Source of the DNA: a virus
Virus record (IMG/VR): IMGVR_UViG_3300043449_002450
Coordinates: 112,182-176,181 of that record
Strand: one strand, 5' to 3'
Length of the DNA stretch: 64,000 bases
The notes under the pieces are model-generated. The model was given only the letters and a program-made list of their open reading frames with translations. It made no database searches and was not told the DNA's origin. Below, one piece after another: positions 28,755-64,000 of the stretch. Within the stretch, counting starts at the first letter, position 1. Every line of letters starts with the position of its first letter. The position numbers and the translations under genes are program-made.

Positions 28755-28953
28755 AAATTATGGGACGTTAAAATACTTGCACGAGCTTGATGAGATACTG
28801 AACGACCTAGATGGCGTCAGAAGTCATCTAGGTCGTCTTGAACGCAAGGAAAGGTTCACAATTTCACGCGCGATGGAGAGCCTCCGCTACCTTAGACGCA
28901 AGGCATCGCGCCACGGTCTCAAGGTCGGTCTCCTTGAGGAGGAAGACTTATGA
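28738..28953 (+). CDS. Hypothetical protein
   Basis: ATACTTA 28724-28730 directly upstream. Confidence 0.6.
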   Translation: MAKIPENYGTLKYLHELDEILNDLDGVRSHLGRLERKERFTISRAMESLRYLRRKASRHGLKVGLLEEEDL

Positions 28954-29837
28954 ATGCTTTGAGAACATACGTCCGCGCCGTCCTCTCTGAGGCCGTAGGT
29001 CAGGTCACATACCAGCGGACCGATATAGGCAGAGCAGCGGATAAATTCAGCGGTGCCGATGAACTCAACCCTGGCGGATCAGTTCTGGCGAGCGCTGTCA
29101 AGGGCATGGCCACGCTTGGCACAGCCGCTAAAGTCATGTCTAGGACAAAGTCAGGCAAAGTTGCTGCAGGCTGGAATGCAACAAAAGGCTCTAGAAAAAA
29201 TGTTCTCTCTGCTGTTGGCGCGTTGGGTGTTGTTGGATACGCTGTAAGTCAAGATTTTGCTTCTAAAAGAAGTAATGCAGACGCAAAAGATGATGATGAT
29301 GAGCGCTTAAGAGCGCAGATGGCTCAATTCCACGAGAAGCTGATAGCATCGCTGGATGCAACCCAGACACAAATGCTTGAAAGTTTCAGGACGCCCGAGG
29401 TTAGATCTGCAAGCTCTGATCAAATGACACCTGATAAGGCCAAGGCGCTCTTGACGAATTTTAAAGCCAACTACACAAAATATGTCGGCGACTACACTCG
29501 AAAAGGATCCGTGCCCTTAAACAATCGATATGCAGATGTTTTCATGGGGTCCACCGAGACAGGATCAGCCAAGGGTAGACTAGAAAGTATCATCAAAGAT
29601 ACGGCAGCCAACACGAAAGAGTTTGATGAAGCAGGACTCAGATACTACGCGTCTTGCGTCATGCAGATATATGAGGCACAGCTAATTGTTGCTGCGATGA
29701 CCGAAGACCTCGCTGTCATTCCTGATGAGATTACAGACAAGAAGACGTTCCAGGCAGCGTCGGATCAATTCAAGACAAGAATTGATAGCACAAAAGCGCT
29801 TAAGGAGGCGCTTGACGTTACTAGCGGAATGGAATAA
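28950..29837 (+). CDS. Tagged hypothetical protein with one hydrophobic segment
   Basis: MNALRTYVRAVLSEA tag; VLSAVGALGVVGYAV segment. Confidence 0.7.
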   Translation: MNALRTYVRAVLSEAVGQVTYQRTDIGRAADKFSGADELNPGGSVLASAVKGMATLGTAAKVMSRTKSGKVAAGWNATKGSRKNVLSAVGALGVVGYAVSQDFASKRSNADAKDDDDERLRAQMAQFHEKLIASLDATQTQMLESFRTPEVRSASSDQMTPDKAKALLTNFKANYTKYVGDYTRKGSVPLNNRYADVFMGSTETGSAKGRLESIIKDTAANTKEFDEAGLRYYASCVMQIYEAQLIVAAMTEDLAVIPDEITDKKTFQAASDQFKTRIDSTKALKEALDVTSGME

Positions 29838-29890
29838 CGTTTTAACGTGCATCCCGCGCTGTCTAAGATCGCTTAAAGCACGGAGTTTCT

Positions 29891-30226
29891 ATGTCTTGGT
29901 TTCCAGAGATCATGTATGAGGAGGAGGATAATGGTGTTTCCTCTAAGATACCTTTTATTGCCGTTCCAGCTGACCAGGAGATGCCTAAGTTCCTGTTTAT
30001 CTTTGAGAGCAGAGAGACAGGTGAGTTCGAGCCGGGCCCAGAGGGTGAGGATCTACCCGTCGTGCAGCTAGATCTACATCAGTATGCTGATATGACACGC
30101 TTGAAGGCGGGACTCGATGCAGAGACCTTTGACAAGGTGAGAGGTGTTCTCGGCCTAGAGCCTTTAGGCACGGCTGCTTCTAAAGGCGCAAAAATAACGC
30201 AGAACATCAGAAAAAATCTGAGCTGA
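29891..30226 (+). CDS. Hypothetical protein
   Basis: RBS GGAG; TTTAA-N18-TAAGAT upstream. Confidence 0.7.
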   Translation: MSWFPEIMYEEEDNGVSSKIPFIAVPADQEMPKFLFIFESRETGEFEPGPEGEDLPVVQLDLHQYADMTRLKAGLDAETFDKVRGVLGLEPLGTAASKGAKITQNIRKNLS

Positions 30227-30257
30227 CGTATAGTTAAATTTGACGCAGGAGTTTAAA

Positions 30258-30776
30258 ATGCGCTTTGATGTTAATCGTATCTGTGAGCTCGCCGGCATTG
30301 GAGCAGCATCCGGTGGTCTAATGAATGAGGCAGTAACTGCCGCACCCCCAGCAACTGCCAAGCCTGCACCAGGTGCCAAGCCTGCACCAGGTGCCAAGCC
30401 CGCCCCGGCTCCCACAGCCACAACCAAGCCACCAGGTCAGGCGCCTAAGCCAGCTGCTGAGGGTGATGAACATGACGAAGGCTACCATCTTGATGAGATG
30501 GGCTATGAGGAAGGCGACTACCACATGGAAGAGATGAGCATCGATGACGGCGATGTCTATGAGATCGATGAATATGCTCTCATGGAGGCGCTCGTTGGCA
30601 TGCGTCAGCGTCGCCTTGAGGAGTCACAGGTCCGTGACACAGTTCGTGATGAGATTCGTCGCGCGCTCAGCGACCGAAGCGGTTCTTGGATTTACGGTGC
30701 CAATAAGCCCACCAACAGCAAGGCTGGCCAGATCGCTCGTGGCGGATTTGGAATTGGATTTGGTTTCCGTCGCTAA
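30258..30776 (+). CDS. Low-complexity late protein (possible scaffold/internal head protein)
   Basis: ATAGTTA 30230; RBS AGGAG; R..ELAGI..LMNE, PAPGAK repeats, acidic LDEM/MEEM repeats. Confidence 0.65.
   Translation: MRFDVNRICELAGIGAASGGLMNEAVTAAPPATAKPAPGAKPAPGAKPAPAPTATTKPPGQAPKPAAEGDEHDEGYHLDEMGYEEGDYHMEEMSIDDGDVYEIDEYALMEALVGMRQRRLEESQVRDTVRDEIRRALSDRSGSWIYGANKPTNSKAGQIARGGFGIGFGFRR
30356..30400 (+). repeat. 18-nt tandem repeat x2.5 (TGCCAAGCCTGCACCAGG) encoding AKPAPG
   Basis: Units at 30356-30373 and 30374-30391, partial unit 30392-30400. Confidence 0.9.
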
Positions 30777-30813
30777 TTAGATAAAACATAGATCATTAGA
30801 AGTTAAAAAACTG

Positions 30814-31181: not shown

Positions 31182-31195
31182 ACTAGAGGTAAAAA

Positions 31196-32002: not shown

Positions 32003-32016
32003 CGCGTGTTTATGAT

Positions 32017-32211: not shown

Positions 32212-33804
32212 ATGCACGAAGAGACTGACAAGCTTGTTCTCTTTGATCATGACACACGCGACCGCCTGTTAAAGGGAGTCAACACACTTGCTGACGCGGT
32301 CAAGGTGACGATGGGACCCCGCGGTAGGAATGTGATCATTGAGCGACCTGGGCAGCACCCTATCCTCACAAAGGATGGCGTGACTGTTGCTAGAGCTATC
32401 AACCTGCGTGACAAGGTCGCCAATCTAGGCGCACAGATGGCTAAGGAAGCAGCCTCGCGGACAGCAGACGAGGCAGGTGATGGGACGACCACAGCCACAG
32501 TCCTCACACAGGCGATCTATGCTGAAGGGCTCAAGATGCTCGCCGCGGGATACTCAGCCTCAGATCTCAAGAAGGGCATCGACATGGCTGTCGATGAGGC
32601 GCTGGATGCTATAACAGGCATATCGACACCTGTCGCTGGCGAGGAGGATCTACTTAGGGTTGCAACAGTTTCTGCTAATGGCGAGACAGAGCTGGGCGAG
32701 CTCATCTCGCGTGCGATCAAGACAGTCGGTCAGGACGGTGTTGTCACAGTCGAGGAGGCGAAGGGATTCAGCAGCTCGCTTAACGTGGTATCGGGCGCTC
32801 GACTCGAGCGAGGCTACCTGTCTCCTTATTTTGTCACAAACCAGGATAAGATGGTCTGCGAGCTTGATCGGCCTGTTGTCCTAGTTCTTAATACGCGCCT
32901 TGACACGCTTCGTGATATCGCAGGATTTCTTGAGCGAGTTCTAGCTGCCAAGAGGCCCTTACTCTTGATCTGTGAAGACGTCGATGGTGAGGCATTGCAG
33001 GGGCTCGTTGTCAATAAGCTCAAGGGAATTCTGAATGTCTGCGCAATAAGGCTTCCTGGGATTGGCGAGAGCAGATATGACTACGCGCAAGATCTTGCAT
33101 CTTTGCTAGGCACCACAGTCTTTCACACATCTGACGTGAGCAGCCTTGCTTCCACTTCGATCGACTCTCTAGGTTCGTGTCTTCGTGCAACAATCAGCAA
33201 GTCAGAGTCTATTCTTGTTGGCGCAAAGGGCACGGCTGAGTCATACGCAGATCGTGTCGAGGAGATCAGAGCACGTGCTGCTGAGACACCTGACGAGGAT
33301 GAGCGCGAACATTGCAAGCGTCGTCTAGCCTTGCTTTCCGGAGGTGTTGCCGTGCTCAAGGTGGGCGGCGCTACAGAGGCTGAACTCCGAGAAAGACGAG
33401 ACCGAGTTGATGATGCTCTTCATGCAACGCAGGCAGCTCTTCGTGAAGGAATAGTCCCCGGCGGTGGAGTAGCCCTGGCCCGCGCGAGCAAGCAGCTTTC
33501 CGAAGTGCAACCTGGGCCATACACCGCGGGCAGGCAGGTCGTGAGGCACGCTTGCAGCATGCCACTACGTCAGATTGTTGCAAACAGTGGTGGTGTTCCA
33601 GACATTGTCTTAGCACGCGTGCTTGAAGGTGAGACACGTCAGGGATACAATGCCTACACTGAGACATACGGTGATATGCTTGAAATGGGCATCATTGATC
33701 CTGCTAGAGTGGTTCGTTGCGCTCTGAAGAACGCAGCATCTGCTGCTGGAATGATGCTTACAGCAGGATGCACTCTTGTCGAGGACGAAGGCGGCGCTGC
33801 TTGA
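32212..33804 (+). CDS. groEL: GroEL-like chaperonin
   Basis: AVKVTMGPRGRNV, TKDGVTVA, AGDGTTTATVL, GYLSPYF, VGGATE.E, GIVPGGG, GIIDP; no GGM tail. Confidence 0.96.
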   Translation: MHEETDKLVLFDHDTRDRLLKGVNTLADAVKVTMGPRGRNVIIERPGQHPILTKDGVTVARAINLRDKVANLGAQMAKEAASRTADEAGDGTTTATVLTQAIYAEGLKMLAAGYSASDLKKGIDMAVDEALDAITGISTPVAGEEDLLRVATVSANGETELGELISRAIKTVGQDGVVTVEEAKGFSSSLNVVSGARLERGYLSPYFVTNQDKMVCELDRPVVLVLNTRLDTLRDIAGFLERVLAAKRPLLLICEDVDGEALQGLVVNKLKGILNVCAIRLPGIGESRYDYAQDLASLLGTTVFHTSDVSSLASTSIDSLGSCLRATISKSESILVGAKGTAESYADRVEEIRARAAETPDEDEREHCKRRLALLSGGVAVLKVGGATEAELRERRDRVDDALHATQAALREGIVPGGGVALARASKQLSEVQPGPYTAGRQVVRHACSMPLRQIVANSGGVPDIVLARVLEGETRQGYNAYTETYGDMLEMGIIDPARVVRCALKNAASAAGMMLTAGCTLVEDEGGAA

Positions 33805-35167: not shown

Positions 35168-35908
35168 GTGGCAGAAATGGAGACATACTTTAAGCATCTT
35201 TCTCGTGGTCGGCTTCTCACCCGTGAGGAGGAGGTCGAGCTTTCCCAGCTCATCGAGGCAGGCGATAAGCGCGCACGGGATCGAATGATCGAGTCAAATC
35301 TTCGACTCGCAGTTTCGATCGCCAAGCGGCACCAGCGTAGCGGCTGTAACCTGGAGGATCTGATTCAGGAGTCGAACGTGGGCCTGATCAAGGCAGTAGA
35401 TCGGTTCGACTGGCGTCGAGGCTTCAAGTTCTCCACCTACGCGTCCTGGTGGATCAAGCAGGCGGTCCGACGACACGTCACTGACACGTCGTCCGACATT
35501 CGCGTTCCGGCACACACGACCGCTCTCGCGTATCGGATCTCGGTCTTTGTCGATGAATATGAGAATGAGTTCAACACTCGACCCACCGTCGAGGAGATCG
35601 CCGAGATGATGTGCGTCCCGGTGTCTACTGTTCAGGAGCTCATGAACAGCAGCGGTGTTCGATCGATGGTCTCTCTGGACGCGATGATCGGAGATGAGGA
35701 CGGCAAGAAGATCCTCGAGACGATTCCGGACGACAACGCAGTCTCGCCCGATGAGGCTATTGATCGCGAGAAGATCCTCAGCGCGATCAGCCGCTGCCTT
35801 GACAAGCTCACTCCCCGAGAGGAGCAGGTCCTTCGTCTTCGGTTTGGCGTGTCTGATGTGCAGGATACTAGCAACTTTCCCGAACAGCTCTTTACTGGAG
35901 GCATCTAA
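35168..35908 (+). CDS. RNA polymerase sigma-70 family factor (RpoD/RpoS-like regions 1.2-4)
   Basis: LLTREEE, ESNLRLAVSIAK, DLIQESNVGLIKAVDRFD.RRGFKFSTYASWWIKQA, IRVP, SLD, LTPREEQVLRLRFG; region 4.2 HTH appears absent. Confidence 0.93.
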   Translation: MAEMETYFKHLSRGRLLTREEEVELSQLIEAGDKRARDRMIESNLRLAVSIAKRHQRSGCNLEDLIQESNVGLIKAVDRFDWRRGFKFSTYASWWIKQAVRRHVTDTSSDIRVPAHTTALAYRISVFVDEYENEFNTRPTVEEIAEMMCVPVSTVQELMNSSGVRSMVSLDAMIGDEDGKKILETIPDDNAVSPDEAIDREKILSAISRCLDKLTPREEQVLRLRFGVSDVQDTSNFPEQLFTGGI

Positions 35909-39634: not shown

Positions 39635-40102
39635 ATGGCATGGATGACAGGAGCAGACACACCGACCGATTGGGATGCAGTCATTGAGGATGCTCGAGGC
39701 CACGCGGTCCGCGGCGGAGGAATATACGTTGGCTGTGACAGCCATTATGCATCTGGAACTTGCACCTATGTCGTCGCCGTCTGCCTCCACGGCGCTGCGG
39801 ACCAACAAGGTGGTAGATACTACTTCCTTCGTGACAAGGTCCCGATGCCTGGCGGAAAGGCGATGATGTGGCTCAGGATCACTGAAGAGGCCAATCGTGC
39901 GGTTTCTGTCGCGATGACATTGATGGGCTCTGTCCCTGATGCGAGGATCGAGGTCCACCTTGACGTCTCATCTGACAGGAAGCACGCATCAGGCGCGTTA
40001 TCTGAGTCACTATCGGGATATGCAAGAGCAGCTGGGTTCGTGTGCAGGGTTAAGCCCGCGGGATGGGCTGCAACGTCTATCGCAGATGGGCACACTCGCT
40101 AG
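39635..40102 (+). CDS. RNase H-like YkuK/DUF458 family protein
   Basis: IYVGCDS, E...V..A, EVHLDV, VKP..WAATSIAD. Confidence 0.8.
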   Translation: MAWMTGADTPTDWDAVIEDARGHAVRGGGIYVGCDSHYASGTCTYVVAVCLHGAADQQGGRYYFLRDKVPMPGGKAMMWLRITEEANRAVSVAMTLMGSVPDARIEVHLDVSSDRKHASGALSESLSGYARAAGFVCRVKPAGWAATSIADGHTR

Positions 40103-40989
40103 ACTGCTGTAGGACGACCTGATGTGTCCGGTCTACGCTTGAGCTTTCCTTCTGTCTCAAAGCGCTCTGCTAGGACTTGTCTCGCACAATCGATCATCGG
40201 CGTTTGTATTGTCCCAATTTTAATAGGACCAACCATCATGTCTTTAACATCATACTCAGGAACTTTAATTGATTCGAACGATTTGCGAATTTTCTCAATC
40301 TGCGCAGAAGATGCCTTATCTGCTTGCTCAATTGCCTCCATGGCTTCGATAGCACGCAACATTTTCCTACCGGACTCAGCTTCAGCCGCATATTCTCCGA
40401 TAAGCGTCTGGTTCCTAAATAGTAAATCTATTGACAATATACTCAAAGATTCTTTTACAATCCACCCGAGAATCGTTGGTGCTTGATCTAAGCAGGCCTT
40501 GATTGAAATCCATATCTTTTCGAGTGTTGTCATAGATGACGCCAGACCAAGCTCGACGTTAAGTGGGTTTGTCATCCACATGGTGAGACGATATATGATT
40601 AGATCAACTAAGATCTCACAAAGAAGTGCTGTTGTCTTTTGATGCTTCTCTTTGTCTGATGCGACAGGCGACATGTTGACAACTATGATCTTGTAAGATT
40701 TTGATAAGATTTGAACAGCCGTTGTTCCTTGCGCAATTGTGCGCAAGACGCCAGAGAGCCGTGATAAAGCGGGCCAAGACAGCGACGCTGCTCCAGCTGC
40801 CTCGAGAGCAATTACGCCACCCACCCACATCGCTATAAGCGTGTCAGTGTCATATGTAATGATGTCATCACACGGTCCTGGCGCATTAGCTGTTGGAATG
40901 AAGATCAACGGAAGCATTGAAAATTCATTTATAGCGCCGCTAGATTGCACGGTCTCGCGTATAAAGTGTCTAAGCGTTCTTAGCTGCAT
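40099..40989 (-). CDS. Tagged hypothetical protein with hydrophobic segments (only clear minus-strand gene)
   Basis: MQLRTLRHFIRETV..INE; RBS AAGGA; divergent from 41048. Confidence 0.72.
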   Translation of the reverse strand: MQLRTLRHFIRETVQSSGAINEFSMLPLIFIPTANAPGPCDDIITYDTDTLIAMWVGGVIALEAAGAASLSWPALSRLSGVLRTIAQGTTAVQILSKSYKIIVVNMSPVASDKEKHQKTTALLCEILVDLIIYRLTMWMTNPLNVELGLASSMTTLEKIWISIKACLDQAPTILGWIVKESLSILSIDLLFRNQTLIGEYAAEAESGRKMLRAIEAMEAIEQADKASSAQIEKIRKSFESIKVPEYDVKDMMVGPIKIGTIQTPMIDCARQVLAERFETEGKLKRRPDTSGRPTAV

Positions 40990-41047
40990 ATAATCTTCAT
41001 CCTTGATGCGTAAGATCGATAATACATATTAGCTGGAAGGCAAAGAT

Positions 41048-50488: not shown

Positions 50489-50620
50489 GTGATTGTCGAA
50501 GACGATCAAGTCGGGCTAGTCATAGAAGAGTCAGACACACAGAGGCTGTTTGTTAGAGTTCTAAAGAACGGCAAGATCTCATGGATACCGAAAAACAGAA
50601 TTAAGGTGCTTGATAGTTAA
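50489..50620 (+). CDS. Second small KOW/SH3-like ORF (start uncertain)
   Basis: (LKEGDL)VIVEDDQVGLVI...; GAGG 8 nt before GTG 50489. Confidence 0.45.
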   Translation: MIVEDDQVGLVIEESDTQRLFVRVLKNGKISWIPKNRIKVLDS

Positions 50621-50624
50621 AGCC

Positions 50625-52037
50625 ATGCGTAATAGAAAACACCTCAATGAAGACTTTGACATCATGGGATCGCTTCACAGCGCCGCTCGATCCTTTCTTG
50701 ACCTTCCAATCGTCAAGCGTGTGACTAGCGCTCTTCCTGGCGGCGAGGACTCACCAGAGGATGAGGAGGAGGTCGGCAAGCAGGGTGGGAAAAGAGCCTC
50801 TAAGGAGGATCTTGCTCAATCACTTGAGACAGCTGCAAATGAGTCGGTCCCTCTTAGCATCGCGTTAGACCTTGACACAGATAAAAGTGCCCTAATCATT
50901 GGAAGCAGCCAGGCCGGAGTTGTTGGCTATCCTGTCATGAAGTTGCTTGAAGGTCGCGGATTCAAGGAATTCAAATTCGATCCGACGCCTGCAAAGACGA
51001 TGCGGTATGTCTTCTCTTACGCAGCTGCTGTAGTGAAGGATCGATCAAAATATGATGTGATTGTTATCTTCCCAGGTTACAGATACGGCGAAGACCCAGA
51101 CACAGTTGAGGAAATTGTCAACCTATTCACACCTGGGCGATGCTTTGTTGTCGCACCACCCCCAGTAACCACAGTGACTAATCCTCTTGAAGCAGCCAAG
51201 CTAGGTCTCAACAAGGGAAATCCCGTCCAGGATAACTACTGGTTCAAGCTCCGCGGGGGGAAGTATGCAGCAGAACGTGAAGATTTCTGCAAGCGCCTAG
51301 AGTCTCTAGTCAGCAACGCGGGTGCGACCTACATCGACCCTAGAGATCTGAACCTGGGCGGTGAGATGCAAGAGTCGGGTATCCAGTTTCCAAATAGCCC
51401 AGATGGAATTCATCCCGCACCTGCAGTAATTGATGCTATAGCAATGGCTACAATAGATGCTATATTTGAATGCACGCTTCCCATCAATTCTGTCGACATT
51501 CTTTCCAAGATCACACCTGAACTCTTAGAAAGGCGTCCAGATATCGCCAGAAAGCTGGACGCATATAAGGGAATCAGCGGAATTCTAGCAGCAGCTAAGG
51601 GCATTGAGTCAACCGGAAGATATGGCAGTGGTTTTGGCCCGCGTAAGGCGCCAACTGCAGGAGCTTCAACTGATCACAAGGGCGTTGACATAGGACTTCC
51701 GATAGGAACTAATGTCCGTGCGATCATGGACGGAACAGTTCAGTATGTTGGTCTTAATAGCCCGACAGCAGGAAACTACATCGAAGTCATGCACGACGGT
51801 GGCGTCCTATCCCGATATATTCATGGATCTGAGATCCTCGCGAAGAAGGGTGAAAGAGTTAAGCAGGGTCAAGTCATCATGCTGTCTGGTAACACGGGCG
51901 TGTCGACAGGACCTCACTTGCATTTCGCGATCAATGTGAACGGTCGTCCTGTCGATCCAGTCGCGTGGCTCGATGACCATGACGAGGCAATCACACCCGT
52001 TAAGATTACAGGAAGAGAAGGGAGATTTTTAGCATGA
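50625..52037 (+). CDS. SGNH/GDSL-like domain plus M23 peptidoglycan endopeptidase
   Basis: LIIGSSQ..DGIHP (SGNH blocks I and V); HKGVD, GNYIEV.H, Y.H, GNTG.STGPHLHF; ATAGTTA 50613. Confidence 0.82.
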   Translation: MRNRKHLNEDFDIMGSLHSAARSFLDLPIVKRVTSALPGGEDSPEDEEEVGKQGGKRASKEDLAQSLETAANESVPLSIALDLDTDKSALIIGSSQAGVVGYPVMKLLEGRGFKEFKFDPTPAKTMRYVFSYAAAVVKDRSKYDVIVIFPGYRYGEDPDTVEEIVNLFTPGRCFVVAPPPVTTVTNPLEAAKLGLNKGNPVQDNYWFKLRGGKYAAEREDFCKRLESLVSNAGATYIDPRDLNLGGEMQESGIQFPNSPDGIHPAPAVIDAIAMATIDAIFECTLPINSVDILSKITPELLERRPDIARKLDAYKGISGILAAAKGIESTGRYGSGFGPRKAPTAGASTDHKGVDIGLPIGTNVRAIMDGTVQYVGLNSPTAGNYIEVMHDGGVLSRYIHGSEILAKKGERVKQGQVIMLSGNTGVSTGPHLHFAINVNGRPVDPVAWLDDHDEAITPVKITGREGRFLA

Positions 52038-53130: not shown

Positions 53131-53165
53131 AATCAGTAACAGCATGATGCGGATACTTACATTAG

Positions 53166-54326
53166 ATGCCTAAGACTCTAAGAAACTTTATACGTGCTGT
53201 TCTCGCTGAGAACTACAACGTCTCTATTGTCGCTAGTCCTATCTCGACGGGCGAGAAGAGAAAGCGTGGCCAGCCACCTGAGAGTGACATCATCGCCAAT
53301 GTCATCATGACTAAGGGCGACTTTGATGATGTCGTCAAGATCGCCAACGAACGTGACGTCCTCCGTGCATTGGGCGATGAGACGGACCAGACGATCAAGC
53401 TGCGGATCGATGAGATCCGAGCCCGCGTCGGAGGCGGACCTGCCAACCTGGCTCGAGCGTTGATAAACCAGATCAAGCTGAATCAAGATCTACTTAACCA
53501 GGTCCTGTTCAATATGCCTGACGAGAATGGTGTTGTCACACCAACACATCCTAAGCTCGGTGAGGAATATCCTATTCCTCCCATGTTCAAGCAGTTGGCA
53601 ATGGTCGAGAAGCCAGGTGCCAAGGGTGTGGCAATCGGCAAGGGGGAGGCGCTTGCCATCCTCATGTTCGGACGTGCTGAGAATGCAGGGACGGAGCCCG
53701 ACCTGATCGTTAGCGAAGAGCTGAAGTTTAGCATCAAGTATTTCTCTGGAGCATCAGCGACAGTCTACGTCAGCGCGGGCCTCGCTGTCACACCTGGCAT
53801 CAACTCTCTTGTGGATGTAACTAGTAAGCTCCGCGATATCGCAACAGAGAAGGGTCTCTACTCAGGCGGTAAGGCGATCAGCAGGAACCAGATCGCAGCG
53901 CTGCTAATGACGCTGAAGAACGACATCGAGAGCCGCATCCCTGCCGATATGCGAAACATGACGATGTATTACTCGTCTGACATGCCCCGTGCTGACCTGG
54001 ATCCATCAGGAATCGCTGCCTACGAGGTGAACGAGACATACACTGCAAAGGCGCTGCTAGACATGATCGACCAGTGTGGTAACCTGTGGGACAAGACCGC
54101 GTTCTCGCAGTATCCGATCCTAGCGCTGCAGGGAACTTCGTCCATGAAGTTTGTGGCAGAGCCCGCATCTGACTCTAGGTTGGGCAGCATTAACTTTGGC
54201 AAGCCTATTCCGGAGCTAATGATCGCATCACCAACAAAGGCGAAGATGCTTGTGACGCCGGGTGCTAGCAGTCCTGCAGCAAGCACACCAGATGATGACG
54301 AGGAGCTCGAGGCAGATGGAGGATGA
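53166..54326 (+). CDS. Tagged hypothetical protein, possible degenerate PD-(D/E)xK fold
   Basis: MPKTLRNFIRAVLAEN tag; ATACTTA 53153; GKGE..PDLIV..FSIK. Confidence 0.7.
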   Translation: MPKTLRNFIRAVLAENYNVSIVASPISTGEKRKRGQPPESDIIANVIMTKGDFDDVVKIANERDVLRALGDETDQTIKLRIDEIRARVGGGPANLARALINQIKLNQDLLNQVLFNMPDENGVVTPTHPKLGEEYPIPPMFKQLAMVEKPGAKGVAIGKGEALAILMFGRAENAGTEPDLIVSEELKFSIKYFSGASATVYVSAGLAVTPGINSLVDVTSKLRDIATEKGLYSGGKAISRNQIAALLMTLKNDIESRIPADMRNMTMYYSSDMPRADLDPSGIAAYEVNETYTAKALLDMIDQCGNLWDKTAFSQYPILALQGTSSMKFVAEPASDSRLGSINFGKPIPELMIASPTKAKMLVTPGASSPAASTPDDDEELEADGG

Positions 54327-54954
54327 TCTTTTAAGAGAAGCAATCAGAGCGCTTCTGCAAGAGAAAGGCGACGTGGCAGTCGAGCCAACACGTCAATCTG
54401 GACCGATAGCCTACTATAAGATCAATGATCCTGTTGGAAAGCTTGCTCTAATTATGCCCGGCATCAACCATCCTAGTTATTCGACTGATATGCCAAAGAC
54501 TATTATGGAAAAATCCGAAGGCTATCTGCGTAGATTCTCCTACATTGTGCCAAATGGCACGGGAGTTTCTGTTGCTGCGGCGCTGGACGCGATCAATCGT
54601 GACAAGAAGGTTGACCTCAACACTGCGAGCGAGCGGATCCTTATTGGACACTCAGCAGGCGGTGCAGCTGTCCTAAGATACCTTACTACTAGCGGCGCTG
54701 GACCATTCAATAAGATCTACCTTTTAGATCCAACACCAACAGTTACTTCATTGCCTATGTCCGACTGCTCCAACGTCTTGTTAATACATAACTGGCGGAA
54801 CTGGAGTAGCGGCCAGGAGCGTCGCAAAGCATTTAATCTGCTGGGCAAAGACATCGCTAAGAAGGGTGGCGTTGCTGAAGAGAATATCATGAATCACATG
54901 GCGATACTTGATGAGGGTTTAACAAGAGCAGCAATGGGCGTTTTAGCTGTGTAA
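54316..54954 (+). CDS. Tagged alpha/beta hydrolase
   Basis: MEDDLLREAIRALLQE tag; MPG, GHSAGG nucleophile elbow, LLDP, C-terminal H. Confidence 0.78.
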   Translation: MEDDLLREAIRALLQEKGDVAVEPTRQSGPIAYYKINDPVGKLALIMPGINHPSYSTDMPKTIMEKSEGYLRRFSYIVPNGTGVSVAAALDAINRDKKVDLNTASERILIGHSAGGAAVLRYLTTSGAGPFNKIYLLDPTPTVTSLPMSDCSNVLLIHNWRNWSSGQERRKAFNLLGKDIAKKGGVAEENIMNHMAILDEGLTRAAMGVLAV

Positions 54955-55937: not shown

Positions 55938-55980
55938 ACAGGGCAGGTGTAGATACTTAAGATAGTATCGGAGTAGCTTG

Positions 55981-57465
55981 ATGATAGATGTGATAAGGCA
56001 CGCGATTAGAGAGATGTTGCTCCAGGAGCGCGTCTTTGGAGCCCAAGCATTTGTCTATCACGGCTCTAGCACAGGACCTGACGTGATGATTGACATCCTG
56101 ACAAACGACACTTTTAGTCCAGGTTTAGGATTCGGGGGCGTGTATGGCAAAGGTCTCTATAACGTATACGACTATGAAGGGACACCGACAAGCAAGGGAG
56201 AATACGGTGAGTATGTCTACAAGCTAAGTGTCAATCTATACGGCTACATCTCCTTTGATGAGAATGTCACTGTCCTAATCTACGGCAAGAACCTAAGACC
56301 ATCAGAGCAAGCAGAATTGACAGGCGCGTCAAAGTATGTGGTCGAAGTTTTGCAAAAGTATGATGAGCCCAAAGAGGGAGAATTCACCTCAAAGCGCGCG
56401 TGGCCCGCATCAAAACTAATTAGAGGTCTTGTCAAGGGTCTCATCTTCACGGGCGGCAACGACGGTCGTGTCGCTCTCGCGTACGATCCTTCAACCGTCA
56501 CGCCTGTGGCATGGAAAAAAGTTACTGATGCCGATTGGACACCCGTAAATAGAGAGATAGTCAAGGGCTCGTTAAAAAAGAATCTACACGGTGGTTACGT
56601 CGCATCTAAATTTGAGAAACCTGAGGAAGATGATTTCATCCTGATTAACAAGGTTTCGCGTCTGCCACCTCACATGCGTGTCGTCAATAGAAGTTTGAAC
56701 CTGGCGAACACGGGCTTGGAGCGCTTACCAGATAATCTAACAGTTGAGGGTAATCTATCAATAGGGTCTAATCCGATAGATCATCTACCTTCTGGCCTGA
56801 CTGTGAATGGTAGCCTAACATTTCAGAAAACAGGCATCACCGAACTGCCACCGGATCTCAACGTAAGAGAGTTGACGATCGAAAATTCACCAATCCAAGA
56901 GCTGCCTCCCGGATTGTCTCTTCGCGATCTAAAGCTTATAGGATCTGCAATTACCAGTCTGCCTGATGACATTAGAATCAGAGGCGCACTTGTGATAAAG
57001 AACACAAATATCGCAGAGCTGCCACAACGCCTAGCAGACACACTTTGGTATCTAGAGTTAGACACAGTTCGAGGCATCACCCTGCCAAGAAGCATGAATG
57101 TCCCGGGCTCGTTTATAGTGCTCAATGCGCATAATGAAGGAGATGTCATCCTGCCTGACGCTTTAAGCACAGGGCATCTTAAATTGCACGGTAACGGAAT
57201 TACGCAGTTACCCAATAATCTCAGTGTAGACAAGACTATGGAGGTTCGCCACACGAGCATCAGATCTTTGCCGTCAAACCTTCATGCTGGCGGCTATCTG
57301 GATGTTGGCAATAACCCACAACTTACAGAGCTTCCACCGGGTCTTAGGGTAGATGGTCGGCTCAACGTTCACGGCACAGGCATCACCAGCATTCCTGCCG
57401 ACGCGCAGATTCGTGGTGAGATCACTGGTCTTAAGCGACAAGCGCGGGCTGTGGATGCATTTTAG
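55981..57465 (+). CDS. Tagged protein: ADP-ribosyltransferase-like (H-Y type) domain plus leucine-rich repeats
   Basis: IRHAIREMLLQE tag; VYHGS..YGKGLY..YG.YVYK; about 11 LPxxLxVxGxLxL repeats; ATACTTA 55953. Confidence 0.7.
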   Translation: MIDVIRHAIREMLLQERVFGAQAFVYHGSSTGPDVMIDILTNDTFSPGLGFGGVYGKGLYNVYDYEGTPTSKGEYGEYVYKLSVNLYGYISFDENVTVLIYGKNLRPSEQAELTGASKYVVEVLQKYDEPKEGEFTSKRAWPASKLIRGLVKGLIFTGGNDGRVALAYDPSTVTPVAWKKVTDADWTPVNREIVKGSLKKNLHGGYVASKFEKPEEDDFILINKVSRLPPHMRVVNRSLNLANTGLERLPDNLTVEGNLSIGSNPIDHLPSGLTVNGSLTFQKTGITELPPDLNVRELTIENSPIQELPPGLSLRDLKLIGSAITSLPDDIRIRGALVIKNTNIAELPQRLADTLWYLELDTVRGITLPRSMNVPGSFIVLNAHNEGDVILPDALSTGHLKLHGNGITQLPNNLSVDKTMEVRHTSIRSLPSNLHAGGYLDVGNNPQLTELPPGLRVDGRLNVHGTGITSIPADAQIRGEITGLKRQARAVDAF

Positions 57466-57509: not shown

Positions 57510-57827
57510 ATGATCACACGCAACGACAACGACGTCCAGCAGCTGTTAGATGAGAATCAACGAGTCATCATCATGTTCAGCGCATCATGGTGTGGCCCCT
57601 GCAAGACATTCAAGCCCAAGTTCCAAAACATCAGTCTTGAGAATCCAGACGTCGTCTTCGCTTATTGCGATATCGAGGAGACGAATGCACTGGCAACTGA
57701 GCTGGAGATCCAGTCGGTGCCTACCGTGGTCAGCTTCTTCGACGGGATCGAGGAGTCATCTGTCGTTGGACCGACGGTCGATAGGGTGAAGGAGCTGGTC
57801 GAAAAGCTGCGATCGAAGAATAGTTAG
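57510..57827 (+). CDS. trxA: Thioredoxin
   Basis: FSASWCGPCK, IQSVPT. Confidence 0.93.
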   Translation: MITRNDNDVQQLLDENQRVIIMFSASWCGPCKTFKPKFQNISLENPDVVFAYCDIEETNALATELEIQSVPTVVSFFDGIEESSVVGPTVDRVKELVEKLRSKNS

Positions 57828-57831
57828 ATGT

Positions 57832-59751
57832 ATGCTCCTCACAGAATCGCAGCTCCGTAGCATCATCAGCGCTCTCATCCTTGAAGGCTACAAGGATAAC
57901 CAGCGTCTTCTTATCCAAAAGCATCCTAGTCATGAAAATGTTCTCGGGACGATGTCGCCGAAATGGATCGAGTGGCTAATCGTAAGATATGGCGATCCTC
58001 CAAGCATAGAAGAAGATCATGTTTTCGAGGACGCGATTGTTACTCTTGTAAAGTTTGCAGAGCGCGACAATAGCTTAAGCACAAAGTATCGTGCAAATGC
58101 CAAATTCAGAGCTGCTGTCGATGAGTTTATCAAACCAAATGAGCGTGGGTGGGCAGACTGGTCCAACCCAAGAGATGCCTTGAAAGTATCTGTCGATCAG
58201 ATGGAAACGATCATGGGTCTCGCCGAGCGCAAAAAGCAAAGCGTCGAGGTCGATCAAGAAGAGGACATCGAGGGAGACAGGATCGGCAAGGTGGGACCCT
58301 GGAACTTGTGGGTTCCCACGTCAATGGAGCGTAGCTGCAAGATCGCGCAGTATGATCCGATCACCCGCGCTCCGAAGACGACCTGGTGCACAGCGAGGAC
58401 TGCCGGGTCAAACCTGTTCTACCACTATGTTGGTAGCCAAAACCAAGATATCGTCCTGTTCTACGTCATAAAGGACGACCCTGAAGCAGATGAAGACTGG
58501 CTATCAGTCGGTTATCTCAATGGAAAACCTGTCTTAAAAGGTCAGCGAGGCGGTCTATCAGTCACGCGTAGCAATAAAGGCCTGACACCCGAGACACTAC
58601 AGGCCATTCTGGGGGACAACTTTGACCCTATCATGGGGATGCTTGCCGAGAAAGCGAAAGAGATGTCAGGCGTCCATCCTGCAAAAGAAAAAGTCAGGGC
58701 AGCCGCGCGGGACCCCGAACTCTTCAAGAAGATGTTAAAGGGCCACTCGGAAGAAGAAAATAAAGCGATGAAGACCATGATCTCAGAGATGAAGGACATA
58801 TCACCCGAGGTCCTCACACTTCTCGCAGATGAGACAGACAGCCTCATCCTCTACAGGGTCACACATAATCCTCTGACACCCGCAGAAGCGCTTGAAAAGA
58901 TCGTGGACCGTGGGATAAAGACACACAACTGGACCGCGTCTTCGGAATTAGCCGCCCACCCCAATGCAACACCTGAGCTGTTGAGAAAACTTGCAGATTA
59001 TCTGCCCGAAAACTACCTCAGCACGGTCGCGGCAAATCCACGAACTCCCGTCGACGTGCTGCTAAATCTATCCAACGTCAACTCTTATTACATCTCAGCA
59101 GGACTTGTCAGGAACCCTTCCCTGCCCCCTGAGGGGATTGAGAACATCATCAACCAGGGACTGAATACGGTAAAAAATATTCCCGCCACCAGTATCGTTG
59201 AAAATCCTAACATAACACCCGACCAGCTCGTCAGGTTGATGGACATGTCAGCGCAGATAAAAGAATATGCTCTGAAAAGTCCCAAGCTACCGATGGATGT
59301 TCTCCTAGCACAGCTTGATCAACCGATATCCTGGGCCACGCGGCAGGCTTACCTAAATCCCAACGTTCCAGTTGAGCGCCTTGTCCAATTCATGGAAGAT
59401 CCCAAGAATGCTAGCTGGCAAAACGCGATGCTTCAAAATCCTGCCATGCCCGCAGACATCCTCCGCAAGTGGTATAATACGCCACACGAGGAGGGCGATG
59501 ATAGAATGTATTACATGCTTCGAAATCCGCGCCTGCCCGAGGACATCATGCTGGGTGTCGCGAAGAAGGGGAACAAAGATGAAAGGCAGACACTTGCTGG
59601 AAACCCGGGTGTTACAGATGCAGTCCTCCAGATCCTCGTCAGGGATCGCAGTGCCGGTGTAAGGGACTTCGCTATGCATGTGCTGCAGAAGCGTCAGGCT
59701 GCCGCCGTGAACGAAGCAGTTGCAAGAATAATCAGAAGATTGATTCGATAA
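57832..59751 (+). CDS. Tagged protein with a WCTA-motif domain and LRV/HEAT-like repeats
   Basis: LTESQLRSIISALILEG tag; SC...TTWCTA..FYHY; about 11 (A/L)xNPxxPxxxL repeats; ATAGTTA 57820. Confidence 0.78.
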   Translation: MLLTESQLRSIISALILEGYKDNQRLLIQKHPSHENVLGTMSPKWIEWLIVRYGDPPSIEEDHVFEDAIVTLVKFAERDNSLSTKYRANAKFRAAVDEFIKPNERGWADWSNPRDALKVSVDQMETIMGLAERKKQSVEVDQEEDIEGDRIGKVGPWNLWVPTSMERSCKIAQYDPITRAPKTTWCTARTAGSNLFYHYVGSQNQDIVLFYVIKDDPEADEDWLSVGYLNGKPVLKGQRGGLSVTRSNKGLTPETLQAILGDNFDPIMGMLAEKAKEMSGVHPAKEKVRAAARDPELFKKMLKGHSEEENKAMKTMISEMKDISPEVLTLLADETDSLILYRVTHNPLTPAEALEKIVDRGIKTHNWTASSELAAHPNATPELLRKLADYLPENYLSTVAANPRTPVDVLLNLSNVNSYYISAGLVRNPSLPPEGIENIINQGLNTVKNIPATSIVENPNITPDQLVRLMDMSAQIKEYALKSPKLPMDVLLAQLDQPISWATRQAYLNPNVPVERLVQFMEDPKNASWQNAMLQNPAMPADILRKWYNTPHEEGDDRMYYMLRNPRLPEDIMLGVAKKGNKDERQTLAGNPGVTDAVLQILVRDRSAGVRDFAMHVLQKRQAAAVNEAVARIIRRLIR

Positions 59752-60642: not shown

Positions 60643-60646
60643 TTTT

Positions 60647-60700: not shown

Positions 60701-60735
60701 TTAGGTCTCTTTCACACATCGATATATTTAGTATC

Positions 60736-62289
60736 ATGAATCTTACAACGTTACGTCATCTCATCCGTGAGATGATCCTTATTGAGAAGACACAGCCCGC
60801 GGCTCCAACAGCCGCTGCGCCGGCAACGAGCACATCGGCGAATATTCCGTCATATCACACTGAGAACTTGCCGAAAGCGCAGGCGTATGCGAAAAGTCTG
60901 GTCGCACCTCTAGCACCAGTGGGTGGCTACGTCATCCAGGTAGCAGGCGGCAAGGTGACGTTTGCTTCGGGCACGATCCTTCCCAACGGGGCTCTTAAAG
61001 CTGCAGGCGCGACCCCCGCGGTCCTTGAAAAATTTGCGCTGACGCTAGATCAAAATCTCAGGAGCTCGATAAAGAAAGGCCATTGGGCCATATCAAATCC
61101 TGCGCAGTGGACGAAGAACGTGCTCGACTGGAAGGACAAGGAGGGCAAGCAGCTCCTCGCGACGACTGGGGCGGCAAAAAACCTGCAGGACTACCTTATC
61201 AGCGAAATGGATGCGATGCCCATCACCATCACGATCGCCGACCCGGCAATTGGCACCAAGAAGCGTGGTGAAGCGTTCCCAGATCTGGCTGCTGGCACTT
61301 ACGCGTTTTACGAGACTGAAGCTGCGACCTACGTTTTCAACCTTGTGTCGGATACGGGGTGGAAAACGATCAAGCCGCTTACCATTACTTATCCTCACAA
61401 CAAAGTCGCTAGTGATAGAGCGGTCGCAATGATTGCTGGTTCATTGAAGGAGATGCTCGCAAATCCGGTGGGGGTCGAGCACGTGCCACGTCACGAGTTC
61501 GGTCATGCTGACGAGAATCTCATCACTTACTTTTTGCAGCAGGTGATAGCCCGAAGAGTCGGGAAAGGAATGACCGCGGCGGCGTCAGAAGTAACGGTCA
61601 CGGACGTCGACTCGGATGCGGTGACGCAGGCGCGACTTGGAAACTTTAAGAGCGCGGTCAAGAGACACTCAGCAGATCTCATAAACGCGCGGGTTGGCAG
61701 CCAGGTCGCTCAGTCTATCGTTAAGAGACGTCCAGAGCTTGGAAACGCCAAGACTGCGTTCCAACACCCAGACTATCTGTATTATTTAACAGCATACGCT
61801 GGTGTGTTGACCTCTCTTGGTTTAGTCCAGTACACCGACCACCCACTTGCTGCGTTCGGCGTGGCGCGTCCGGCGCCTGGGAGAAACGTCGTTGTGATCA
61901 AATCCAGCATGGTGATGGAGAATGAGAAGTCTGCTAAAGTCTTCAACGTGAACGCCGCGGGACCGGACTTCCTGCACCAGTCTGTTAAAGTTACCGGTGA
62001 GAGTCCCCAGGCCATCGTCGATACTGTGAAAGCTTATTCGGGTGATGGGGGCACATGGCCGTGGGATCCTGGTCACATTCTCGATACGTTAAAGATGTTG
62101 CAGCAAAATTTGGACCCAGGCGATACTGATCTCGATGCCGCGATCAACAAGCTGGCAAGTGACCCTGTCGCCGATGAGGAGGCCCGCCGCGCGCGGGTCC
62201 TCGCTGACCTGGCTGGTCCCGATTTCTTCTCGGCGGTGCAGACTGTCGCCGCGGCGGACGAGCTACCGCAGAATAGCTCGTCCGCTTGA
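60736..62289 (+). CDS. Tagged protein with an HEXXH (zincin-like) motif
   Basis: MNLTTLRHLIREMILIE tag; ATATTTA 60724; HEFGH at 61492-61506. Confidence 0.72.
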   Translation: MNLTTLRHLIREMILIEKTQPAAPTAAAPATSTSANIPSYHTENLPKAQAYAKSLVAPLAPVGGYVIQVAGGKVTFASGTILPNGALKAAGATPAVLEKFALTLDQNLRSSIKKGHWAISNPAQWTKNVLDWKDKEGKQLLATTGAAKNLQDYLISEMDAMPITITIADPAIGTKKRGEAFPDLAAGTYAFYETEAATYVFNLVSDTGWKTIKPLTITYPHNKVASDRAVAMIAGSLKEMLANPVGVEHVPRHEFGHADENLITYFLQQVIARRVGKGMTAAASEVTVTDVDSDAVTQARLGNFKSAVKRHSADLINARVGSQVAQSIVKRRPELGNAKTAFQHPDYLYYLTAYAGVLTSLGLVQYTDHPLAAFGVARPAPGRNVVVIKSSMVMENEKSAKVFNVNAAGPDFLHQSVKVTGESPQAIVDTVKAYSGDGGTWPWDPGHILDTLKMLQQNLDPGDTDLDAAINKLASDPVADEEARRARVLADLAGPDFFSAVQTVAAADELPQNSSSA

Positions 62290-62401
62290 ACATTTTGAAT
62301 TAGCGGGCGATAATAGCCATGTAATCTGCGGGACGAGTGTGCATAGTCAGTGGTGTGACCGCGCGGAGACCACGCTCTCCATTTGCATAATAGTTAGATC
62401 T

Positions 62402-63487
62402 ATGAAAGAAATGCTGCTTCGAAAACTGATCCGTGAAACTCTTCTGCTCGAAGCAAAGTTTCAGTATCCAGGTGGTGACTCCATCCACGGAGTTTTTGCC
62501 TTTTGGCGCTTCTTTCTCCGGAGTGACTTCGAAGAGATCAATGGTCGGTGGCCGACATATGGAGAATATGTCGATATCTTTCAGGGCGCGATTCCAGGAT
62601 TTGTCTACACCTACGGCAACAACGAGACACCTGACACACCGTTCGAGAGTGTCTTTGCACGCGAGCCAGGTGGCAAGTTCCTGGATAGAATCTATAAGCA
62701 GCTTGTGGCATTCATTGGAGACGATGACAGAAAGGACCTCAAGGTCTGCAGGGCGATCGAGCGTGTCGGAAATGCTCTGAGCCGTGAGGCAAAGGAGACA
62801 CGCAAGCGCAAGCGAGATGCTGAGGCGGCGGCTGAGCAGCTGAGAGCAGCGGAATACGCTGCTAGTTATGAGCCTACCGCGCCCGAAGGTGCACCTCTAG
62901 GAAAATACGCATTCTCACCCCAGCGGCAAGGTTCAATGCGCCCGCCACCTCCAGAGAGAAACCTGCCAGTGGAATCAGCGCTCCTCCGCTCCATCATCAG
63001 CCACTTCGAGGGACAAAGGCCTCTCACCAGACAGCAGTCCGATCTCGTCATGAGCTTTATTAGAGACGGCCTCTACACTGACGTCTTCAGAGAGCCACCG
63101 CCCGGGACCTTCTACCGCGGAATGCTCCTCGCGATCGAGGATCTCACAGCGATGGGCATTAGGATTCCTAGAATGGAGATAGGCGAAACGCTGGATATCG
63201 AGGACAATTTTACGATGATGCCACAAGGCAACAGGTTCTCTTCCTCCTGGTCATCAGACATCGAAGTCGCCAATAGATTCTCGCGTGGTAACCTGGGTCA
63301 ATCCGCTCGTGATGTCTACTCGGTCGTCTTTGCAGCAGGATCACAAGAAAATCCGGGTAAGTTCATTGACGCTGATGGGTTGTATGACTTAGACATGGAA
63401 GAAGGCGATTATTTTGCTGCAGAGAAAGAAGTCATTGGACTTGGACCCATCAATGCAAACGGGGTCAGAATTGTGAGGCTAGCATGA
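62402..63487 (+). CDS. Tagged protein with a C-terminal R-S-E ADP-ribosyltransferase-like domain
   Basis: LLRKLIRETLLLEA tag; ATAGTTA 62390; FYRG..SSWSS..VA..F..EKEV. Confidence 0.75.
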   Translation: MKEMLLRKLIRETLLLEAKFQYPGGDSIHGVFAFWRFFLRSDFEEINGRWPTYGEYVDIFQGAIPGFVYTYGNNETPDTPFESVFAREPGGKFLDRIYKQLVAFIGDDDRKDLKVCRAIERVGNALSREAKETRKRKRDAEAAAEQLRAAEYAASYEPTAPEGAPLGKYAFSPQRQGSMRPPPPERNLPVESALLRSIISHFEGQRPLTRQQSDLVMSFIRDGLYTDVFREPPPGTFYRGMLLAIEDLTAMGIRIPRMEIGETLDIEDNFTMMPQGNRFSSSWSSDIEVANRFSRGNLGQSARDVYSVVFAAGSQENPGKFIDADGLYDLDMEEGDYFAAEKEVIGLGPINANGVRIVRLA

Positions 63488-64000
63488 AACTAACAGAATC
63501 TACACTTCGATCACTAATACGTGAGGTCCTCACAGAATCGTCAGCTGCGCGACGCGCGCAGACCCGAGCCATCACGGGTGACCGCAACACGAAGCTGGAG
63601 ATCTGGCAGCTTGCTGACTCGCTGATCACGACGCCGCCGAGCGCACACTTCACGATGACGTCCATACAGAAGGTGGGCATTAATCCTGGGTCACGGTATA
63701 ACACACCGCTGGCCCTCTACGCGTATCCTGTCACCGATCACACCGTCGACCAGCTGATGGGAGTGTTTGAGCCTGATGCTGCGGCTCGAGCTAATGCTGG
63801 TGAAACCATCACAGCGGCAAAAGCTGCGTCTGTCGCAAAGAACAAGGCGGAGTTCAATAAGGGCGTTGAAGATGACATCAAATTAATTTCGCAGTTCACG
63901 CTAAACGAGCTATATCACCAGCTTCCATTTGTCGAGACCGCGCCCTACATCAACTTCTTCAGGCTGCAGCCCGACGGTGTCTTCTACACTTCGATCGGGA
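63484..64000 (+). CDS. Tagged hypothetical protein, 3'-truncated by the window edge (not in the ORF track)
   Basis: MKLTESTLRSLIREVLTES...KVGINP..YNTP..LYAYP; ATGA coupling; open to the window end. Confidence 0.75.
   Translation, partial: MKLTESTLRSLIREVLTESSAARRAQTRAITGDRNTKLEIWQLADSLITTPPSAHFTMTSIQKVGINPGSRYNTPLALYAYPVTDHTVDQLMGVFEPDAAARANAGETITAAKAASVAKNKAEFNKGVEDDIKLISQFTLNELYHQLPFVETAPYINFFRLQPDGVFYTSIG

Follow-up and report, generated by a model that had tools for sequence, protein, structure and literature searches.

In phage T4 IPI, IPII and IPIII (internal proteins), together with Alt, carry a capsid-targeting sequence (CTS) that is removed by the prohead protease gp21 (Mullaney and Black 1996; PMC9026906, PMC3012670). 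The CTS is 10-19 residues in length, gp21 cleaves after L/I-x-E and the internal proteins, diverse in other respects, have only this sequence in common; the T4 precedent was accurately described in the original prediction made for the DNA considered here (PMC9026906, PMC3012670). In the giant phages phiKZ, 201phi2-1 and SPN3US gp21-like proteases cut propeptides and ejection proteins after S/A/G-x-E or a similar motif (PMC5694885, PMC7411985, PMC10052503). The Dar antirestriction proteins of phage P1 are packaged into the head (PMC9024508), and AcrIF11 is an ADP-ribosyltransferase (ART) anti-CRISPR (PDB code 6kyf; bioRxiv 10.1101/2024.08.26.609590).

The DNA comes from a 176-kb record of an uncultured large phage of the T4 type. 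The window analysed, a stretch of 64,000 nucleotides to which the positions below refer, carries 11 of at least 16 proteins that share an N-terminal tag. All 11 proteins for which the tag had been predicted begin with L/I-R-x-x-I/V-R-x-x-L-x-E, in each case at the coordinate given for it and 1-10 codons after an ATG. The longest open reading frames at three of these loci start at 54262, 60646 and 62135; these were replaced by starts at 54316, 60736 and 62402, which make the tag N-terminal. Database homologues of the 54316 and 55981 proteins begin at the matching position.

When the whole record is scanned with a profile trained on the tag, 16 matches score 9 bits or more and the background reaches at most 7.2 bits. 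Every one of the 16 lies 1-10 codons past an ATG with a long reading frame behind it, and none falls inside a protein. The matches include the profile's own training sequences, and for that reason the independent test is an untrained pattern. Applied loosely, this pattern matches at 14 N-termini and at 5 internal positions (binomial p 5e-9), the internal occurrences being at chance level. Shuffled controls, in which an equal frequency of the motif had been named as evidence against a tag, give 0.8 N-terminal matches (maximum 5) and 4.3 internal ones, as opposed to the 14 N-termini of the real proteins. The shared tag is thereby confirmed. Four looser versions proposed at 13944, 23034, 24901 and 27864 have scores at the level of the background, and as true tags they are doubtful. 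The 23034 protein, a homologue of Fe/Mn superoxide dismutase that is probably untagged, was dropped, and a His-rich protein of 149 residues (13953-14402, plus strand) is a doubtful member, its loose tag-like N-terminus scoring less than the strict profile requires. The tag is absent from the helicase, FEN nuclease, DnaE, chaperonin and sigma factor, as the prediction that no replication or nucleotide enzyme carries it would have it.

Hydrophobic residues occupy positions 1, 4, 5, 8 and 9 of the tag and are flanked by two arginines, in the manner of an amphipathic helix. Arginine is found at position 2 in 16 of 16 tags, encoded by CGA, CGT, AGA or AGG, and the leucines use six codons. Since the arginine codons are drawn from both codon families, selection acts on the peptide and not on the DNA. 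L/I-x-E occurs inside the first 22 residues of all 16 strict tags compared with 52 of 195 (27%) among all open reading frames. In 12 of the 16 it is placed exactly at the helix end; the other four have to rely on an internal I-R-E or a later site downstream of the helix.

For 20 proteins with a strict or loose tag, Pfam and PHROGs returned next to no matches, and no paralogy was found among the tagged cargoes. The cargoes are up to 809 residues long with near-neutral charge, and the proteins concerned, at least 16, occupy 10% of the record. All those in the window are encoded on the plus strand, with one exception. The orphan of 295 residues at 28950-29837 is the product of the second gene in its operon, with the tag at residues 4-14, ending L-S-E; no match was found in Pfam, PHROG or Atlas (the ESM Atlas gave nothing usable). 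The exception is an orphan of 296 residues (40099-40989, minus strand), which lacks the terminal L-x-E and has I-R-E, with I-N-E at residue 22. It is divergent from 41048-43477, an orphan of 809 residues with two hydrophobic segments that is matched by the tag profile, and the 58-nt spacer holds a copy of the motif ATAnnTA on each strand. The stop of the latter gene overlaps the start of 43474-45822, which belongs to the same operon and encodes an orphan of 782 residues with a tag ending L-L-E at residue 22. Further orphans are encoded at 53166-54326 (386 residues, tag ending L-A-E at residue 15), at 62402-63487 (361 residues, with a tagged homologue of 55% identity in the related phage G004) and at 63484-64000 (at least 172 residues, running past the end of the window and of the contig).

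Four cargoes have some indication of fold or function. The protein of 212 residues at 54316-54954 is a probable alpha/beta hydrolase with G-H-S-A-G and a weak match to an esterase PHROG; it has two database homologues only, both of which keep the tag, with a variable linker after L-L-Q-E. LRV-type repeats are suggested for the 639 residues encoded at 57832-59751 (Pfam LRV_2, 26.9 bits with a cut-off of 27), and H-E-F-G-H at residue 253 makes the product of 60736-62289 (517 residues) a possible zinc protease. The fourth, of 494 residues (55981-57465), combines an ART fold with leucine-rich repeats (LRR). Of the two ART-like domains in the list of cargoes originally drawn up, this is the only one supported; the profile comparison aligned the other protein, that at 62402, to the ART-LRR family over the tag alone.

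In the 55981 protein the tag (residues 2-14) is followed by the ART domain (approximately residues 20-230) and the LRR domain (approximately 215-490). In the AF2 model (mean pLDDT 89) the tag is a low-confidence helix detached from the fold. The LRR domain has a match with Z of 18.8. The N-terminal domain, modelled with a pLDDT of 86, finds AcrIF11 (6kyf) as its best Foldseek match, with E of 4e-4 and 15% sequence identity. About 40 of 50 rows returned by VIA are ART-fold proteins with Z of 4-6.3, modest values, so that the assignment rests on the consistency of the match list. The model of this domain conforms to the ART fold, with its split beta-sheet, and we assign the domain to that fold as a structural prediction. 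The tag is carried by 94 of 120 homologues, and in 88 homologues of the cargo the glutamate of L-L-x-E is invariant and the residue between is free. Of the NAD-site motifs looked for, Y-H-G-S/T has Tyr26 and Gly28 invariant, with Y-T-G-S in some homologues, and Y-G-K-G-L-Y is nearly invariant. No invariant glutamate was found among the homologues for the third position of the H-Y-E class; an invariant aspartate in V-Y-D-P may replace it. One relative has 12 copies of the ART-LRR family.

The motif ATAnnTA had been predicted to precede tagged genes or the first genes of their operons, and it does so. Of 94 plus-strand copies 38 lie within 40 nt upstream of a start, a 10-fold enrichment over the 3.7 expected, and the reverse-complement control gives 7 of 54. 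On the plus strand ATACTTA at 28724 heads the operon containing 28950, ATACATA at 41022 is 19 nt upstream of 41048, ATACTTA at 53153 is 6 nt ahead of the 53166 ATG and a further copy at 55953 lies ahead of 55981. The spacing is 5 nt for ATAGTTA at 57820-57826, ATATTTA at 60724 and ATAGTTA at 62390, ahead of the ATG codons at 57832, 60736 and 62402, respectively; the first is an example of the late-promoter-like form. ATAAATA is found upstream of the loosely tagged gene at 13953. Outside the window the motif also precedes scaffold, tail and baseplate-region genes, and it may be a late-type promoter motif of tagged and structural genes. In G004 the exact motif stands before 3 of 17 tagged genes, the others having the variant ATAAACTA.

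More than 600 related contigs were recovered in one search. Two relatives of approximately 255 kb, G004 and G005, have about 15-18 tags each, mostly on other cargo; the genome-wide profile scan that had been proposed thus finds 16 tags in the record and similar numbers in these two phages. The fragments G001 and G002 have 1-3 tags only. The 36 tagged proteins counted in four phages represent 22 families of cargo. The tagged genes are in a non-syntenic, hypervariable genome region, and the peptide is kept across phages with capsid proteins only 65% identical. No cultured phage matched the window by megablast. The closest cultured capsid proteins are 42% identical (Flavobacterium phage immuto) and that phage has one weak tag match; no cultured model phage with the tag set was found by megablast, the capsid search or the tag scan of immuto. 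CheckV estimates the completeness of the record at 52% and it may be incomplete. As to circularity, the last open reading frame would reach its stop 51 codons past the start of the contig, but a terminal overlap is absent.

The record contains T4-type head genes for a portal (PF07230), a protease (PF03420, E 1e-25) and a gp23-like capsid protein (PF07068). The S77 (gp21-like) prohead protease shares 32% identity with T4 gp21 (E 1e-22) and retains the H-P and S-S-R-G-x-G-S catalytic motifs. The gene after the protease encodes a core protein whose N-terminus resembles the tag; its sequence, L-K-x-I-V-K-E-C-L-V-E-I-L-S-E-G, is conserved throughout the relatives. In genome coordinates the protease gene is at 83252-83860, the core protein gene at 83862-84377 and the scaffold gene at 85841-87241. 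L-x-E sites are retained at the T4 cut positions in the capsid protein, in the protease and in this core protein. The protease N-terminus is L-L-T-E-W where the T4 counterpart has L-L-I-E-T-W, and the capsid protein has L-L-R-E at approximately residue 61, kept in about 80 relatives.

The resemblance to T4 consists in a short N-terminal propeptide, putative here, that heads unrelated proteins and closes with L/I-x-E, and in a head of the gp20/gp21/gp23 type. In both the genes lie in variable loci; they are late in T4 and may be so here. In both one cargo has an ART fold (Alt in T4, 55981 here). However, IPII and IPIII of T4 begin M-K-T-Y-Q-E-F-I-A-E, a sequence that agrees with the tag in no more than a hydrophobic P3 and the glutamate at P1; the tag is an analogue and not a homologue of the CTS. 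The tag is 11-22 residues in length as opposed to the 10 of that sequence, and the cargo proteins number at least 16 compared with four. T4 internal proteins are small and basic whereas the cargoes here are large and not basic, although Alt is also large, and the ART class is probably H-Y (PARP/AcrIF11-like) and not R-S-E as in Alt.

In phiKZ, 201phi2-1 and SPN3US, as proposed here, a gp21 homologue processes many proteins inside the head after glutamate and protein is ejected in large mass, but the propeptides are mostly longer than 100 residues with a different cleavage motif. We know of no report of a shared short tag on them. The P1 Dar proteins, by description, also have N-terminal targeting regions that load anti-defence proteins into the capsid for injection. 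P1 differs in its head type, its loading order is hierarchical and protein-dependent, and no short tag is common to the proteins. AcrIF11 is likewise a phage-encoded enzyme of the ART fold; it has neither tag nor LRR domain and is related to the predicted enzyme only at the identity given above.

We consider it likely that the tag is a T4-like capsid-targeting propeptide of new sequence that serves many more cargoes. The tagged proteins would be synthesized late in infection, alongside the head proteins, and the amphipathic helix would dock them onto the prohead scaffolding core, probably through the contacts that the core protein makes with its own N-terminus, which is similar and strongly conserved. 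The S77 protease would then cleave after L/I-x-E at the helix end, leaving the cargo free inside the head to exit together with the DNA when the next cell is infected. The original prediction of an address label that loads effectors into the head holds as far as its in-silico consequences go; docking, cutting, packaging and injection are what we infer from them. Exchangeable cargoes in a hypervariable region are what one would expect if they serve in host takeover or anti-defence. Several features count against a capsid-targeting role: the tag does not resemble the CTS in sequence, L/I-x-E is short enough to occur by chance in the first 22 residues of more than a quarter of all open reading frames, and the cargoes are large and near-neutral, unlike T4 internal proteins. 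The four tags with no L-x-E at the helix end, the weak motif in G004, the few tags of G001 and G002 and the possible incompleteness of the record weigh in the same direction.

The helix might instead address proteins to the cell membrane, to the baseplate or tail or to a phage-made compartment, the prohead protease being uninvolved. A generic amphipathic helix with two arginines also suits membrane binding, the frequency of L/I-x-E by chance leaves room for such a role, and one strict tag, at 74688 of the genome, is among tail and baseplate-region genes. We nevertheless judge it improbable: a closing glutamate that is invariant in 88 homologues beside a free neighbour agrees more with a protease site than with a helix in the membrane, the tag-like sequence closest to it on a conserved protein belongs to the gene adjoining the prohead protease, in the head module, and, one cargo excepted, nothing resembling a signal peptide or a transmembrane segment comes after the tags. 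It is less probable again that the tag is a leader read by a modifying enzyme or chaperone. A GroEL-type chaperonin is indeed situated among the tagged genes, but the tag has no conserved Cys, Ser or Thr position and none of the 10 larger untagged open reading frames scanned in the region is a candidate maturase. A radical-SAM leader in particular is rejected, since PF04055 has no match in the record, which thus has no radical-SAM/SPASM enzyme, and is positive in 14 of 14 control genomes.

The shared start could also be a by-product of gene shuffling, a conserved promoter and start module spread from gene to gene by recombination, or reflect a preferred context of translation initiation, with no role in sorting. 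The tagged genes do lie in a hyperplastic region, and the motif is often just 5-6 nt before the ATG, so that promoter and start form one compact module. Against this, the tags are alike in amino acids and not in codons (four for arginine from two families, six for leucine), so there has been no recent copying at the DNA level, and the peptide stays under purifying selection in phages with capsid proteins only 65% identical. We give this explanation very little weight.

A bolder version of the capsid-targeting proposal is possible though doubtful: the tag copies the conserved core-protein N-terminus, so that any protein could be loaded by gaining the helix, and a widespread aquatic clade injects a fast-evolving arsenal of up to approximately 18 proteins per phage, including ART-LRR enzymes whose repeats pick host defence targets. 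If true, phages would have their equivalent of the type III LRR effectors of bacteria and of enzymatic anti-CRISPRs that arrive ahead of any phage gene expression.

The idea of such a propeptide is already established for T4, and the advance is therefore in scale, tag sequence and cargo, not in principle. If the tag works as the CTS does, it would give a second targeting peptide, unrelated in sequence, with which foreign proteins could be loaded into T4-type capsids, and a simple sequence rule would mark the proteins injected with the DNA by a large uncultured group of aquatic phages. About 10% of an otherwise unannotatable genome would then fall into one functional class, pre-made host-takeover or anti-defence proteins, and the rule would direct attention to novel families of enzymes, ART-LRR among them, acting in the first seconds of infection.

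The eleven N-terminal helices in the window predicted to share the pattern L/I-R-x-x-I/V-R-x-x-L-x-E on unrelated proteins were all confirmed as described. A profile built from them and scanned over six frames of the whole genome (the 176,181 bp record) gave five further tags, at genome 2809, 5389, 8439, 9558 and 74688. The rebuilt profile scores these 16 tags, which are its own training sequences, at 9-17 bits against a background of at most 7.2 bits across all six frames; each lies one to ten codons past an ATG and heads a long ORF. Since the 16 matches are the training set, an untrained loose pattern serves as the independent test. It matched 14 times in the first 40 residues versus five times in the remaining 86% of protein sequence (binomial p 5e-9). 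The means in 200 protein shuffles were 0.8 N-terminal (maximum five) and 4.3 internal matches, so the internal frequency is at chance and the N-terminal frequency approximately 17-fold above it. Seven further N-termini, of the kind proposed as looser versions, score at background and one belongs to a superoxide dismutase homologue.

The window is the final 64 kb of one virus contig, which encodes a DnaE-type polymerase and for which no close cultured relative was found. A T4-type head module is present in the genome outside the window, with a portal (genome 80335-82389, PF07230), an S77 prohead protease (83252-83860, PF03420), an acidic scaffold-like protein (85841-87241) and a gp23-type capsid protein (87268-89196, PF07068). 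Capsid proteins with 62-82% identity to this one are carried by more than 600 IMG/VR contigs, and the closest from cultured phages, Flavobacterium phage immuto and Microcystis phage Mel-JY01, are about 42% identical. At 642 amino acids the gp23 homologue exceeds that of T4 by some 120 residues; its match to Pfam Gp23 begins at residue 365, and a large insertion separates this part from the propeptide.

Compared with T4 gp21, the protease has 32% identity (E 1e-22) and retains the His-Pro and Ser-Ser-Arg-Gly-x-Gly-Ser motifs. In T4, gp21 cleaves after L/I-x-E, and the capsid targeting sequence (CTS) of internal proteins is an N-terminal propeptide of 10-19 residues with L/I-x-E at its end (PMC9026906). 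The protease N-terminus is L-L-T-E-W in this clade versus L-L-I-E-T-W in T4. The capsid protein has L-L-R-E at about residue 61, directly ahead of the glycine-rich stretch that opens the mature region; it is the counterpart of T4 L-T-E-65 and is kept in approximately 80 relatives. With such sites at the T4 positions in both proteins, the cutting rule seems to be conserved. All 16 tags contain L/I-x-E within 22 residues, compared with 27% of all ORFs, and many have two sites, one within the helix (I-R-E) and one closing it (L-x-E). Among 88 homologues of the protein starting at window position 55981 the glutamate of L-L-x-E is invariant, both leucines reach 90% conservation or more, and x is free. 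In the AlphaFold model the tag of this protein (residues 2-14) is a helix of low confidence, detached from the confident fold, which starts at residue 22.

The gene directly after the protease (genome 83862-84377; positions 3862-4377 of the head-module stretch L005) encodes a core-like protein whose N-terminus, L-K-x-I-V-K-E-C-L-V-E-I-L-S-E-G, is kept by all relatives and matches the tag in spacing, with lysine for arginine. Three or four L-x-E sites are stacked there. The next small gene (L005:4410-4700, to genome 84700) starts L-T-P-x-x-L-R-R-L-V-L-E-E, a tag-like build also conserved in all relatives. These two N-termini suggest that the tag may dock in the way that conserved core proteins do.

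Synteny with three long relatives holds for the structural and replication genes and is absent for almost all tagged genes, a comparison in which two relatives' contigs stop near the tagged region. These non-syntenic genes occupy two stretches with little shared content, genome 137-176 kb and 1-10 kb. In the relative G004 (257 kb), whose capsid protein is 66% identical, 17-18 proteins carry the tag, and G005 (255 kb) has 15 tag matches, mostly within 226-238 kb; 36 tagged proteins from four phages fall into 22 cargo families. Where a cargo is common to phages the tag is kept: it is present in 94 of the 120 homologues found for 55981 and in both homologues of the probable hydrolase 54316. The G004 homologue of the genome 8439 protein has a shortened tag, L-I-R-E-F-L-A-E, and a few distant 55981 homologues have a different N-terminus. 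In a few homologues (P0046 and P0113) the tag is replaced by L-L-A-E-W-K-E-Y and L-L-E-T-W-M-K-F-L, resembling the capsid propeptide motif, L-L-E-K-W here and L-L-N-K-W in T4; this N-terminus may represent a further type of tag used by other lineages.

The tagged proteins total 5,874 residues, 10% of the record, with no detectable similarity among cargoes, almost no Pfam or PHROG matches and no strongly basic member. Two ADP-ribosyltransferase (ART)-like cargoes had been proposed and one is supported. The N-domain of 55981, folded alone (pLDDT 86), matches AcrIF11 (6kyf, E 4e-4; identity of the entry confirmed), an anti-CRISPR with ADP-ribosylating activity, and its VIA list is mostly ART-fold proteins at Z 4-6.3 (PARPs, diphtheria-type toxins, Rhs and toxin-antitoxin ARTs). 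Two of its motifs, Y-H-G-S/T and Y-G-K-G-L-Y, are consistent with the H-Y class, with Y-T-G-S replacing Y-H-G-S/T in some homologues. The other candidate, 62402, aligns to the ART family over the tag only. Of the predicted repeats, the leucine-rich type occupies residues ~215-490 of 55981 (Z 18.8 to 4u08); the LRV type on 57832 scores just below the Pfam cut-off. Motifs point to a hydrolase at 54316 (G-H-S-A-G, with a weak esterase match) and, at 60736, to the predicted HEXXH protein (H-E-F-G-H); 41048 has two hydrophobic segments. The ART-LRR family of 55981-57465 has over 160 metagenome members with varying repeat numbers and about 12 tagged paralogues in G004 (1-2000, 180-187 kb and 253-257 kb; stretches L113, L122 and L125), where tandem arrays of them lie at either end of the contig. 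Amid or near the tagged genes, without a strict tag, are a GroEL-type chaperonin (window 32212-33804, +), a 475-residue protein with an M23 peptidase domain at its C-terminus (50610-52037, +) and the Fe/Mn superoxide dismutase homologue (23034-23732, +).

ATAnnTA has 94 plus-strand copies, 38 of them within the 40 nt ahead of a start (3.7 expected); in the reverse-complement control the figure is seven of 54. As predicted, 11 tagged genes follow the motif themselves and the remaining five of the 16 are next in a motif-headed operon. The motif is also found ahead of the scaffold gene and of many genes of the tail and baseplate region, a distribution that fits a putative late promoter related to the TATAAATA of T4. 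In G004 only three of 17 tagged genes have exact ATAnnTA, and seven have ATAAACTA instead. Spacing to the start is bimodal (loci: window 53153-53168, 57820-57834, 60724-60738 and 62390-62404; genome 9546, 49451, 100827, 121523 and 145985), 5-6 nt in nine genes and 18-24 nt, usually with GGAG, in fourteen. The shorter spacing is too tight for a ribosome-binding site; if ATAnnTA is a -10-type late promoter, this class would yield leaderless mRNAs. A sigma-70 family factor (window 35168-35908, +) has regions 1.2, 2 and 3 and only the start of region 4, and is a possible reader of promoters lacking a -35 element.

Could the tag serve another purpose? As a leader for a modifying enzyme it lacks its partner: the record has no radical-SAM gene, and a scan of the ten larger untagged ORFs in the tagged region showed no candidate maturase. 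A relic of gene shuffling is unlikely because the tag codons are diverse, the invariant arginine being encoded by CGA, CGT, AGA and AGG and the leucines by six codons, which indicates selection on the peptide and not on DNA. The tag may alternatively address proteins to another destination.

A full-text search found no paper describing such an expanded tag and cargo set. The system shares every CTS feature that can be tested in sequence except similarity to the T4 tag itself; the tag is a new sequence, and so an analogue, and its cargoes are many more and much larger than those of T4. We infer that it works like the T4 CTS, in which case the tagged proteins would be packaged, cleaved and injected.
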